This document shows positions 2,146 through 62,909 of a stretch of 64,000 nt of DNA, piece by piece. Origin of the DNA: Octopus vulgaris (lineage: Eukaryota); the NCBI GenBank assembly GCA_951406725.2, contig OX597816.1, positions 14,508,001 to 14,572,000 on the forward strand, given 5' to 3'. A model generated the notes under the pieces. That model worked only from the letters and a program-made list of their open reading frames with translations. It made no database searches and was not told the DNA's origin. The position numbers were made by a program, and so were the translations under genes. Every line of letters begins with the position of its first letter. Position 1 is the stretch's first letter.

Positions 2146-2180
2146 GTTTCTGACGACGAGCTCCGCTCGAAACGTAAAAC
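2146..2180 (+). ncRNA. Minimal type-I hammerhead ribozyme motif in a ~200-bp Penelope-like repeat (about 2085-2280)
   Basis: GUUU-CUGACGA-C-GAGC(UCC)GCUC-GAA-ACGU-A-AAAC: 4-bp stem I, intact core plus one extra nucleotide, 4-bp stem II, palindromic ACGU in place of stem III, GUA triplet. Confidence 0.7.
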
Positions 2181-3097
2181 TCTCCTTCTTCCCTTCATCC
2201 TGAGCGTCCAATAATACTATATTTGTTCCACGTCCTCGCGTTGTTGTGTTTTCTCTTTGTGTTTTCATGTTTGGATTAACTATATATATATATATATATA
2301 TATATATATATATATATATATATACACACTCAACCGCTGCATTTATATATAAGTGTGTGTGCGCGTGCGTGTGTATATATATGCTTGTGTGTCTGTGTTT
2401 GTCCCCCACCCAATCACTTGACAACCGATGCTGGTGTGTTTACGGTTTACGGTGGCCTCCCTTACAGAACCCCAATTCTTAGATTTTGCTATTTAACTTA
2501 GATTGGAAATTACAGTTATAAGGGAATCCAGTAGAGAAAATGTATCAGCCAGGAATCGAAACAGCTACTTCAGGACCCTCATCTCTCCAATACACAAAAC
2601 AAGCACGAAATGTTGCATATAATCCTTAATACTGATCTTTTCTAGCATCGATAACGCGTTAACCTTTCCAGTGTTCACATATTCTCATCAACACGCAAGT
2701 TGGTCATTTCTTAATAGTCTCATCTCAAACAGGCGCCTTATAATAAAAATCGTGTGATGATTATAATTAACACACGTTTCGTTAATTTGTGCAGCAGACT
2801 CTTAGTCTTCTCAGTATATATGGATTTAGAAGCCCCGTTGAATCAATTATGCCATCGACAATTCTATATTTAATTAGTTAACTAGAAATATGTACATATT
2901 CTAATTATGCTTTTCTGTTATTCTGGACATAAGCAATTTTTATAAATATAATTACTAGAGTCTACGAAATAAGTTTGAGATATGAGAGGAAAGGTTAACC
3001 GTTGGAACCTGCAAAGGCTATAGCCGAGTTATATAATTGATGAGGAATTATATTATATTCTAATATATGTGGGGGGGGGGGGGGGTAAAGATGTGGG

Positions 3098-3423
3098 GGC
3101 GCAATGGCCCAGTGGTTAGGGCAGCGGACACGCTGCCGTAGGACCGCGGTTCTGATTCCCAGAGTGGGCGCTGTGAGTGTTTTCTGAGTTTCACGGGGCA
3201 CCGGCAGGGTTTGGTGGTGAACCTTGCTGTTCTCTTTCACCACAACTTTCTCTCACACTTTCTTCCTGTTTCTGTTGTACCTGTATTTCAAAGAGCCAGC
3301 CTTGTCACACACTGTGTCACGCTGAATCTCCCCGAGAACTACGTTAATGGTACACGTGTCTGTGGAGTGCTCAGCCACTTGCACGTTAATTTCATTTGGC
3401 ACCCTCGTCGTCGTAACCGACGG
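3098..3423 (+). mobile_element. tRNA-derived SINE family B
   Basis: ggcgcaatggcccagtggttagggcagcggac tRNA-like head; body shared with 59612-59990. Confidence 0.8.
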
Positions 3424-3700
3424 TAAACGATACCGACAGACTAAGTAACAAACTTGAAAAAGAGTAAATAGTGAGATTGATTTGTTCGACTAAAACCCTT
3501 CAATGCGGTGCCACAGCATGGCCGTATTCCATTGATTGAAACAAGAAAAAGATAAATGAGTACTTATTCCATGGGGTTAATCAACAATATTTAATGAAAT
3601 CTCTGATGCCCTGTGGATGGGATAATTAACAAATGTACAAACGAATTTAATGATCCAGGCGCTGATGGCGATACATTGCTAATAATCAATACGTGTGATG

Positions 3701-4121
3701 AAGGCGGCGAGCTGGCAGAAACGTTAGCACGCCGAGCGAAATGCTTAGCCATATTTCGTCTGCCATTACGTTCTGAGTTCAAATTCCGCCGAGGTCGACT
3801 TTGCCTGTCATCCTTTCGGGGGTCGATAAATTAAGTACCAGTTACGCACTGGGGTCGATGTAATCGACTTAATCCCTATGTCTGTCCTTGTTTGTCCCCT
3901 CTGTGTTTAGCCCCTTGTGGGCAGTAAAGAAATAGGTATTTCGTCTGCCTTTATATTCTGAGTTCAGATTCCGCCGAGGTCGACTTTGCCTTTCATCCTT
4001 TCGGGGGTCGATAAATTAAGTACCAGTTACACACTGGGGTCGATGTAATCGACTTAATCCCTTTGTCTGTCCTTGTTTGTCCCCTCTGTATTTAGCCCCT
4101 TGTGGGTAGTAAAGAAATAGG
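3701..4121 (+). mobile_element. SINE family A, tandem dimer
   Basis: Full head and body, then a second body ending ccccttgtgggtagtaaagaaatagg. Confidence 0.85.
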
Positions 4122-4904
4122 TAGTAAAGAAATTAATAAATACGTGTGATGTATTTCTCGGAATTAACAAAAGAGAATTTTACAAGTTGAGACCAAGGTA
4201 CGGTTTCGATTCCCAGTTAAAATATTTTCACTTTAATTGTGCCTTTTAATGAATAACCGAAGCTAAATTAATACACCCTCTACTATGAAACTTGCGATCT
4301 TGTGGTGCTGATTGTAGGAACACATTTACACTATTTAAAGGAAATCATGAAAGCAATATCAGCGAAACAGCAGTTAATTTTATTATCAAGCTAAATGTTA
4401 CTATACCAGCGAGCCTATCAGCTGAGTGCATCTTACGTAAACCCAATACATATCCACGCACATACATACATATATCTGTATTTATGAATTTATGTATGAG
4501 TGTATAGCTAGGTATTTTTACTACTGTAGTAAGTCACGTTATCTGCCACATCCTCTTACCCTCTTATCCTCTTCCAATATATATTTTCTTTAGTTACATC
4601 TTATCGAGAAATGGAGAGATGTGTAGGCCTATGTAATTTAAACTATAGCGGAAACTGCACAAGTATTTTTGTTTTATATAATGATAACGCTTAATATATT
4701 CAACTTCAAATTTTCATCTTTTTTTCTGTACATGGAAACAAAACACAAACGATTATACGAAGAAGGTCACCTTCTTCTTTGCAATTTCTAATTTAGAAAC
4801 GTGTTAGCTAGTTTGTTTGGGTTAAGGTGTCCGACGTTATCTTTATATTCTGATGTAGATTATTACGAAAAAAATGACCAACAAACAAACTGATATTTTG
4901 TTGG

Positions 4905-60398: not shown

Positions 60399-60409
60399 CA
60401 TGCCCTCTA

Positions 60410-61378
60410 CTAGTGGTGCAATGGGATTGGTCGATGTTCCGCTTTAGAAATTTTTAGAGGATTAAAGTGCGATGATGTTCTCAGAGAGACTGTGTGCCGA
60501 CGAAAATGAACTGGCTAGTCTGTTCCGGAGGACTTTCCGGTCGGAGATTACCATGGGTGATTTCTTGATGTCCTTGGCCTGGTGGTGCTACTGAGGGATT
60601 ACTACCGGTTCGAGTTAAACACTACAGGCACGGATGTACTGTCAGACGAGCTTGCCCGAGATGCACTCTGAGTGAAGAAACCTTTCTGCACTCACTCGTT
60701 CAATGACCAGGTATTGTTGACTTGTGAGGTTATGTCAAACAATTGTTGTCTTGTTGACTTGTGAGGTTATGCCGAACTGTTGACTTGTGAGGTTGTGTCG
60801 AACAACTATTGTCATGTGTGGGACGGATCTGTCTATCAGCCGAATTTATAGTGATGACTGCTCTGCCGCCCTCCTTCAATCGGGCAAGCAAGGCAGTTTT
60901 CCTTCACCTGGTGGCTGTGATGAAAGAGGTTATTTGGTGGGCAAAGCTGAAAGGCATGAGGACAGATACATTCCTCTTTGGTAGAGCTCCAACTGATTTC
61001 TCCAAGTTTCACTTGAAAAGGAATTTGAGTGTGGAGAGGGAAGTGCTGTCTTCGAGTGAGTTTATTGAAAGGTGGGCGAAAGCTGCGAACATGGCAAGAA
61101 TGGATGTTACCTCTTTAAGTGTTGACCTGTGAATAGGAGAGAAGGAATTGGAGAGGGCACTTGCCCTTGCTGTTTAGGGAACTCTCAGGCTGTAGGATTT
61201 CTCGATTATCCATAGAGATCATCCCATTCCTTTTCCTTGTACACCGCGTGTACTTACATTGATGTTTGTTACTCATTTAATCATTTTATCATTCCGTTAT
61301 ATGTAAACTCCCAAACATTATGTCTGTCTTTCTATTGTCCACCTCATCCTTCACCCTGGTGGCAAAAAAAGGAAATCA
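60410..61378 (+). pseudogene. Decayed L1/Tx1-like LINE 3' end
   Basis: ACPRCTLSEETFLHSLVQ (zinc-knuckle remnant), then GRICLSAEFIV..FLHLVAVMKEVIWW, a 3' UTR and an A-rich tail; ttgacttgtgaggtt is triplicated internally. Confidence 0.65.
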
Positions 61379-61433
61379 TTATTGTTATTATTATTATTGT
61401 TGTTGCAGTTACTGCTGCTGCTATTGTTGTTAA

Positions 61434-61840
61434 TCTTCTTCTTCTTCTTCTTCTTCTTCTTCTTCTTCTTCTTCTTCTTCTTCTTCTTCTTCTTCTTCTT
61501 CTTCTTCTTCTTCTTCTTCTTCTTCTTCCCGTTCTTATTCTCCTCCGCCTCCTTCTTTTTCCTCTTGTTCCACTTGGTCCTCTTCTTCTTCATCTTTTTC
61601 TTCATTTTCTTTTCCTTCTTCTTCTTCTTCTTCTTCTTCCTCTTCTTCCCGTTCTTATTCTCCTCCTTCTTCTTGTTCCTCTTGTTCCTCTTGTTCCTCT
61701 TCTTCTTCTTCTTCTTCTTCTTCTTCTTCTTCTTCTCCTTCTTCTTCTTCTTCTTCTTATTCTTCTTCTTCTTCTTCTTCTTCTTCTTCTCTTTCTTCTT
61801 CTTCTTCTTCTTCTTCTTCCTCTTCTTCTTCTTCTTCTCG
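61434..61840. repeat. (CTT)n polypyrimidine array
   Basis: Read directly; this is the source of the poly-K/L/F ORFs. Confidence 0.95.
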
Positions 61841-62817
61841 TTTATTAGCGATCTTCTTTTATAAGAGTTAAATTGCAATACCTAATTAAAGCACATTCCA
61901 CTCTTAACAACCGAGAAGCGATGAAAGGTATTCCAGTGCAGAGTCATTCTCCCACTCACTTTCATCACTTCGTTCTCACTCAAAGACGAAAGATGAACAG
62001 AAAACAGAAAGAATATGCGCCTAAGAGCGAGTGGGAGTAAGAGAGGAGTCGATTCCTGCAGCGATAGGTTAGGATGGGCTGGAATTCGGATTCCAAACGT
62101 TTGACTTCCACTTAAGATTGGTACAATGGAACACATGCCGTTATAGACAAGAGATTGAGTAAGAGATGCAGTTGAGATCCATAACCAAATATGTACTGTA
62201 GGCTTGAAGAATATTCTCAAGACATTAGAAGCCATGTTTCTGTATTATACCCGGTAGTCAAAGGGTGGTGGTGATTTGACGGTAAAAGGTTGTGTGATAA
62301 AGAAGCTCGCTTTGCGGCCAAGCGGTTTCGGGTTCTATCCCTCTAAAAAGCCCTTTAAGCAAGTGTCTTCTGCTATAGTAGAAGGCACTGGTATGAGCAA
62401 TGCCGAGTGAAAGAAATTGGTAAACGGAAACTGTGTAGAAGCTCGTTGCTTAAAACACTCACACACACTCACATACACAAATAGGTATGCATGTACGTAT
62501 GTATATACATATATGCACACACACACATATATATTGAAGAAATTTATAATAGTTAACCACCAAAGGTAAACCACATACACACACACATATTACATATATA
62601 TATATATATGTTTTTAATAATATATTATTATTAATATTAGGAAATCAATATCAAAACTCCTCGGAAAGATATACACGTGTGAAAAATAATTGTTGTATTA
62701 AAAATATATAAATAGATAAATAAATAAAAATATGCATAAAAAATATATGTAAATATGTAAAAGTATAAATATATAATGTATATGACAGTTAAAAAATTAT
62801 GAATTAAGTATTTAAAG

Positions 62818-62909
62818 CATCTTACGATCGTTTCACAGAAGAGTTGTCCCTATAATGAAATCCTATATTGATAAGCATTTATAGACAACTCTCCTGCTCT
62901 TCAGAGATA
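62818..62909 (-). ncRNA. Type-I hammerhead ribozyme, apparently intact
   Basis: Minus strand reads UAUCU-CUGAAGA-GCAGGAGAGUUGUC..GACAACUCUUCUGU-GAA-ACGAUCGU-A-AGAUG: full core, 14-bp stem II, palindromic stem III, GUA site. Confidence 0.82.

Follow-up and report, generated by a model that had tools for sequence, protein, structure and literature searches.

In a stretch of 64,000 nucleotides of the Octopus vulgaris genome (contig OX597816.1, positions 14,508,001 to 14,572,000; hereafter the window), small hammerhead ribozyme motifs lie scattered through the DNA, as a preliminary description of the sequence had pointed out. This raises the question of whether the motifs are genuine and, if so, what carried them there. 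The observation is real and far above chance. The window contains more than ten copies, mostly damaged, and the octopus is a new host of a phenomenon already published for other animals. With a probability of about 0.8, the motifs are 3'-end (pseudo-long terminal repeat) ribozymes of Penelope-like retroelements (PLEs), which have remained as short and probably 5'-truncated insertions, a large part of them ending at (TA)n.

Hammerhead Motifs in the Window

The descriptor used for the census represents the type-I minimal hammerhead, with stem I, a core containing C3-G8 or U3-A8, zero or one extra base, stem II, GAA and H17. The insert had to be a self-complementary A..U sequence of 4-14 nt (A15.1..U16.1), and the descriptor enforces pairing. 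Four motifs are of strict grade, which requires an unaltered core, a minimum of 3 bp in each of stems I and II, a self-complementary insert and H17: 2146-2180 (+), 12548-12640 (+), 57043-57080 (-) and 62818-62909 (-). The second is an intact motif that was absent from the preliminary description. The insert is palindromic in all four. The earlier assignment to minimal type-I hammerheads with a palindromic stem III is supported.

Hammerhead-like sequence is present at each of the 13 positions for which it had been claimed. Ten of these had been given as full motifs; three (2146+, 57043- and 62818-) are intact, whereas the other seven have a core or stem defect. One departure from the core, in combination with stems 4 bp or longer, is found at 56835- (C4), 24190- (U3.G8) and 16232- (C13); the core is unaltered and stem I disrupted at 26303+ and 56053+; and the motifs at 36431- and 55823- are heavily decayed. 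The sites at 35862/36076 and 45301, described as mere pieces, are pieces indeed. The unaltered core, C3-U4-G5-A6-N7-G8-A9 ... G12-A13-A14-A15.1, U16.1-H17 (or its U3-A8 form), occurs at 2146, 12548, 26308, 56058, 57043 and 62818, and the remaining listed copies have at least one core deviation.

The strict count of four compares with means of 0.05 in 60 local dinucleotide shuffles (maximum 1), 0.025 in 40 global dinucleotide shuffles (maximum 1) and 0.027 in 300 shuffles that kept microsatellites in place (maximum 2). None of the 400 shuffles reached four, and the reversed window DNA gave no strict motif. When one core mismatch was allowed, the window contained six motifs with stems of at least 4 bp, vs 0.28 in local and 0.125 in global shuffles, and nine with stems of at least 3 bp, vs 1.27 and 1.18, respectively. 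Because about 1.2 loose matches per window arise by chance, those at 11516- and 32263+, and perhaps the one at 16232-, may be of this kind. The inserts of intact cores point in the same direction: four are palindromic and none is non-palindromic, whereas the shuffles lean ninefold the other way (0.24 non-palindromic vs 0.027 palindromic). In this comparison, which the preliminary description had proposed on a genome-wide scale, real and shuffled hit rates are far apart within the window.

Rfam gave no match at the gathering score across the window. When the stretches of families D, E and H were scanned separately, D alone matched (Hammerhead_HH9, 20.9 bits vs a gathering threshold of 52), and those of H and E had no hammerhead match. 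A whole-window Rfam search ranked by E-value was discarded, the best 150 of its 444 rows being microsatellite look-alikes. Because Rfam misses the motifs, they are not in routine annotation, as had been suspected.

Families and Their Copies

A self-BLAST of the masked window detected no similarity between families at E 1e-4. Six unrelated families (A, B, C, D, E and H) are well supported, in agreement with the earlier estimate of at least six. The repeat status of A and D follows from public contigs, and that of A, B, C and G from copies inside the window (Table 1). Families A and B have both the extra base after A9 and the G10.1-C11.1 pair. Elsewhere this pair is G-C without the extra base (C and D), G.U (E) or A-U (H); the published rows of minimal hammerheads likewise include forms that lack the extra base or G10.1-C11.1 (PMC4209133).

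Table 1. Hammerhead motifs and associated features of the window
Feature	Position	Strand	Remarks
Family A, copy A1	2068..2280	+	Between two (TA)n runs; hammerhead 2146-2180, core intact (U4) and insert ACGU, cleavage predicted after 2176
Family A, copy A2, decayed	36330..36520	-	Motif 36431-36465, C4, stem I broken
Family A, copy A3	56720..56913	-	Hammerhead 56835-56869, C4 (majority state in family contig depth)
Family B, copy B1	24110..24270	-	Hammerhead 24190-24235, U3.G8
Family B, copy B2	26290..26400	+	Intact core 26308-26343, pair 1.1-2.1 broken
Family C, inverted pair	55790..56133	.	55823-55869 (-) with a decayed core and an intact stem I; 56053-56100 (+) with an intact core and a broken stem I
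Family D, copy 5'-truncated at 57201	56951..57201	-	Hammerhead 57043-57080, U3-A8 core, ACCGGU palindrome, predicted cut after 57046
Family E, hammerhead	62818..62909	-	Core intact, G10.1.U11.1, stem II of 15 bp, palindrome ACGAUCGU, cleavage predicted after 62823
Family F, decayed motif	45295..45345	+	First core half intact, stem II of one pair, G17
Family G, inverted pair, 554 bp	35692..36245	.	Each arm part of a decayed hammerhead; 3' ends outward at TA-rich runs
Family H, unit of 336 bp	12436..12771	+	Between two (TA)n runs; hammerhead 12548-12640, core intact
Doubtful decayed motif	16232..16278	-	C13, AGCGCU palindrome, TA-repeat stem I
Penelope-type reverse transcriptase/GIY-YIG coding remnant	33885..34108	+	Decayed, frameshifted; linker after the reverse transcriptase thumb; found by hidden Markov model; joined to no hammerhead
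SOGA-domain host exon	37987..39367	+	AG and GT borders

The H hammerhead combines its A10.1-U11.1 pair with a long branched stem II and a 12-nt palindrome, and its predicted cut lies after 12636. The motif at 16232 is considered doubtful because its stem I consists of TA repeat. In families B and C, each with two copies, the defects differ between the copies, as would be expected from the decay of an intact ancestor. B1 and B2 face outward 2 kb apart, with fragments of long interspersed nuclear elements (LINEs) as well as (AAT)n between them. A frameshifted peptide upstream of B1 (24380-24440, minus strand) may resemble the C-terminal end of a GIY-YIG endonuclease. No direct tandem repeat in the window contains a motif, and self-BLAST revealed no same-family direct tandem.

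Several other sequences were noted. A 24-nt inverted repeat, 96% alike (12381-12404 and 12801-12824), stands just outside the (TA)n runs that bound H. Upstream of motif E, 63024-63255 (-) contains a two-copy direct repeat of about 87 nt, 72% alike, at a spacing of 147 nt. An additional decayed motif resembling family F is found at 2765-2820 (-), where the first core half has one mismatch and the second half is followed by G, and 15577+ has the first core half and hairpin only. The family A pattern was found at no locus in metagenomes; the family B pattern was found at six loci, none of which continues into the second core half, and these were dismissed as chance.

A Probable Penelope-Like Origin

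Among the features described for PLEs are 5' truncation, inverted copies and a bias toward (TA)n (PMC8557442). In the window, the three A copies share a common 3' end at TA repeats, 100-129 nt past the motif, and all three differ in their 5' starts. The D copy has loose ends at 57201, beyond which other D copies extend 5' in public contigs, and B2 is shorter than B1. The motifs of the C and G inverted pairs point outward, with their 3' ends out. (TA)5 lies at most 200 nt downstream of nine of 14 motifs, vs 16.6% of 5,000 random positions, and of five of nine when one motif per family is taken (P 0.009), which bears out the earlier remark that the motifs are often next to (TA)n. Penelope families are abundant in O. 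vulgaris, with 31 recently active Penelope-like families; the repeat annotation in which these are listed makes no mention of hammerheads (PMC13282606).

Cervera and De la Pena (2014) described minimal hammerheads in metazoan PLEs, with several families per genome and mostly single copies (PMC4209133). These share with the window the type-I topology, the palindromic insert, the short stem I and the presence of several families. The published copies occur dispersed and singly or as opposite-strand pairs 100-700 bp apart, and the C and G pairs are alike in this respect (PMC4209133). Families A and B fit the published PLE consensus CUGANGAH-G..C-GAAAN-palindrome-NU-H, and other forms seen here recur in PLE-linked rows of the same source: U3-A8 in Schistosoma, U3.G8 in Saccoglossus, AGCGCU with A10.1-U11.1 in Marsupenaeus and 10-nt palindromes in Aedes (PMC4209133). 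The motifs also resemble, by a review's description, the variants of Lunse, Weinberg and Breaker, which are small PLE-associated hammerheads with a very short palindromic stem III that cleave as dimers (via PMC6765202). About 2,000 motifs plus 1,300 of the U3-A8 type are reported for Schistosoma, 4,000 for Latimeria and 9,000 for Xenopus (PMC4209133). The density found here, four strict motifs in 64 kb of one selected window, looks higher than the published 2,000-9,000 per genome. The molluscs Lottia and Crassostrea are among the published hosts, and the octopus is absent from the supplement table searched (PMC4209133). The giant squid has 235 Rfam hammerhead matches (PMC6962438), and the relevant passages of PMC8967140 do not mention hammerheads. 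Searches confined to the open literature, without Repbase or Dfam, turned up neither an account of PLE hammerheads in the octopus nor one of a family with C4.

PLE-type coding sequence is present in the window in decayed form. A fragment at 33957 matches an anemone protein with reverse transcriptase (RT) and GIY-YIG-like motifs (E 8.3e-4). Seven relatives of this protein were gathered, and Pfam GIY-YIG scored in two of the five scanned. A hidden Markov model (HMM) built from five relatives detected 33885-34108 at E 3.5e-6, vs a best value of 2.9 on reversed DNA. HMMER over representative proteins gave two matches, of which P0054 was retained; the top match, P0053 (a bacterial surface protein), proved to be a repeat-sum artefact. 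For the 33957 fragment, neither of two candidates scored in a word search and ESM Atlas had no match at 0.9, and viral contigs contained no relative of the PLE-type protein.

These features fit a scheme in which an active tandem element would place two hammerheads in one transcript, so that the palindromic inserts could pair together and form stem III. Slow self-cleavage after residue 17 would then release the unit RNA, and copying by the element's RT and GIY-YIG endonuclease would begin at the 3' end of this RNA and lead to insertion at a TA-rich target. Premature termination would leave stubs of 200-350 bases, template switches would yield outward-facing inverted pairs (C, G and perhaps B), and the stubs would decay after insertion. 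Such minimal motifs show no cleavage as monomers and slow cleavage as dimers (PMC4209133). In predictions for the window, the constrained monomer hammerhead fold has an ensemble share of at most 0.02 in eight of nine motifs, the exception being H (0.28), and in families A and B a single molecule cannot form stem III from its ACGU insert. For D and H, cofolding ranks first a dimer in which paired palindromes form stem III; the palindromes are also paired for the second C motif and for E.

The picture of a population of working ribozymes, which the preliminary description would suggest, is not supported: seven of the ten full motifs are defective, and no copy has a family member close by on the same strand. 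D and A3 lie side by side with different palindromes, and the two halves of each inverted pair are on opposite strands. Because such partners are lacking, most copies are predicted to be inert, and this would permit their build-up in introns on either strand. The elements had also been called non-autonomous, and 5'-truncated copies of longer elements fit the data equally well.

Several observations weigh against the Penelope origin. RT/GIY-YIG open reading frames (ORFs) linked to the motifs, which the preliminary description had proposed to look for, are not found adjacent to any of them by a six-frame peptide-motif scan and the HMM, both with queries from one clade; in this the window differs from published PLE hammerheads. 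The nearest motif lies 1.6 kb from the 33885-34108 remnant, and a full-length element was not seen in the window; the motif-bearing copies lack the length to extend into an ORF. The 200-nt cut-off for (TA)n was picked after the data had been seen, and no such run lies close to B1, B2 or F. The best dimers of A, B and 16232 in cofolding are other pairings than the hammerhead dimer, and the summed contig depth of family D has no peak on the motif. Finally, the 554-bp inverted repeat of G could be a miniature inverted-repeat transposable element (MITE).

Copy Number and the U4/C4 Variants of Family A

Contigs from four public runs (of 24 listed) were aligned to 56722-57320, which contains A3 and D. 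Three runs are DNA-like and one is guessed to be RNA; these are assembled contigs rather than reads, and two of the four runs may derive from the same DNA as the window. The three DNA-like runs cover the unique flank at depths of 61.5, 21.3 and 5.8, and relative to this flank the A motif reaches 56,000-115,000x and D 5,500-12,400x. Because summed contig depth is not a copy number, only orders of magnitude can be read from it, roughly 10^4-10^5 copies for A and 10^3-10^4 for D. The three A copies per 64 kb agree with the former. The high copy number claimed earlier is thus supported for these two families. No variant of at least 5% was shown at U3 or A8 in family D, and its pair 10.1-11.1 takes the forms G-C, G.U and probably A-U.

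In family A, position 4 is U in 23.5, 30.6 and 22.7% of the depth in the DNA-like runs and in 10.3% in the putative RNA run. It is C in about 70-77%, a share that may be biased by the alignment reference (A3), itself C4, and C is also found in two of the three window copies. Further variants among the rows listed affect residue 17 (U or C) and stem I. CpG decay was considered as the origin of the U4 copies. Among the rows listed (25 rows were unlisted), no partner change is seen at G5 or at other CpG sites, so CpG decay does not explain them, and a subfamily difference appears preferable.

C4 occurs in none of the 56 published PLE motifs listed (PMC4209133), in contrast to most of the family A depth. 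The same core change is known as U4C from a viroid hammerhead, where activity in vitro was considerably lower and infectivity was retained (PMC3088659); there it belongs to a viroid ribozyme, and here to the minimal motif of a high-copy animal repeat. The C4 core in the commonest family is predicted to weaken self-cutting. Relative to D, family A is about 40x richer in the putative RNA run (A/D depth ratio 455) than in the DNA-like runs (9-12), a weak hint that it is transcribed, from one strand or the other. It is a tentative idea, and on balance a doubtful one, that family A, as the most abundant hammerhead-bearing repeat of Octopus (tens of thousands of copies or more), was amplified from a U4C master that was (nearly) cleavage-dead, and that the family is still strongly transcribed. 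The fold would then serve Penelope elements for recognition or pairing and not as a cutter, in a genome whose hammerhead load would perhaps be the densest reported.

Host Gene and Other Contents of the Window

The ORF at 37927-39444, in which a SOGA domain is recognized (E 1.8e-17), shares 98% identity with a protein whose cluster bears the name Octopus bimaculoides, and it covers residues 848-1307 of the 2,221 in this protein. The exon has AG and GT borders, and the window gave no second exon of the protein; its remainder is therefore likely to be two long introns of a plus-strand gene. The intronic location suggested earlier is accordingly supported. Relative to the SOGA gene, two strict motifs are sense and two are antisense. 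At 34842-34925 (-), 3 kb upstream of the exon, there is an inverted diverged copy of part of it (residues 940-967, 64% identical).

LINE fragments with zf-RVT (Pfam E 2.9e-4), putatively of the Dong/R4 type, lie in (AAT)n at 24555-26118 and 46459-50629; between 46.5 and 50.6 kb, a unit of about 1.9 kb is duplicated in tandem with hardly any divergence. A decayed Tc1/mariner transposase (HTH_Tnp_Tc3_2, E 1e-6) occupies 19878-20824 (-), and an RT fragment at 10587-10856 (-; RVT_1, E 0.0017) has no match to the PLE-type HMM. At least two very high-copy repeats resembling short interspersed nuclear elements (SINEs), with up to 17 self-matches (e.g., 35-400, 5662-7195, 21666-21990 and 60034-60407), are without a hammerhead.

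Alternative Explanations

It is unlikely, though it deserves the first mention, that elements other than PLEs, such as SINE or LINE tails, or a MITE in the case of G, captured the hammerheads. The absence of an attached PLE ORF and the inverted-repeat form of G would fit such carriers, as would the position of B1 and B2 on either side of the zf-RVT LINE fragments. However, these fragments are embedded in (AAT)n and are found again at 46.5-50.6 kb, where no hammerhead accompanies them, the C and G motifs face outward as in PLE inverted insertions, and the architecture of the motifs matches that of PLE-linked hammerheads in detail.

The preliminary description had named Penelope-like elements and metazoan non-LTR retrozymes together. 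Penelope-like elements fit best, whereas retrozymes, in which tandem units of 150-450 bp are transcribed, cut and circularised, are an improbable source. Retrozymes and the window repeats are both non-coding and high-copy and carry type-I hammerheads (PMC7229834; bioRxiv 2026.07.22.740005). Retrozyme hammerheads have a weak stem III, and retrozymes are present in molluscs (PMC7229834); solo monomers occur (bioRxiv 2026.07.22.740005), and the higher A/D ratio in the run guessed to be RNA would suit a transcribed unit. On the other hand, retrozymes form tandem arrays with mostly canonical hammerheads (PMC7229834), and because the window has no such arrays, its repeats are not regarded as retrozymes. 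The A copies differ at their 5' ends, and stem I is short and without the bulged loop of canonical type-I motifs. A preprint moreover argues that retrozymes derive from PLE ends (bioRxiv 2026.07.22.740005), so that this explanation would become a sub-case of the Penelope origin.

Adoption by the host, with intronic ribozymes (H above all) acting on the SOGA pre-mRNA, is very improbable. H lies on the sense strand with a possible 4-bp stem III, and its hammerhead fold is the minimum-energy monomer in one context. However, no stem III forms in two other contexts, H has A10.1-U11.1, the strict motifs are divided equally between the strands, and most copies are decayed. Least credible of all are chance look-alikes in AT-rich repetitive DNA, which may account for a few loose matches such as 16232, 11516 and 32263 but are refuted for the set as a whole by the shuffled and reversed controls.

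Implications

If the Penelope origin is correct, the octopus can be added to the animals rich in Penelope-type hammerheads, and the motif offers an inexpensive marker by which short unclassified octopus repeats can be assigned to Penelope. The single unusual point is that C4 predominates in family A; the remainder repeats published biology. The role of hammerheads in endonuclease-bearing Penelope elements has been called unclear (PMC8557442). A very successful, mostly U4C family would make this role testable via two natural alleles, and, if the tentative reading of family A is true, its U4 and C4 subfamilies would be a natural pair for testing the role of the ribozyme in Penelope transposition.

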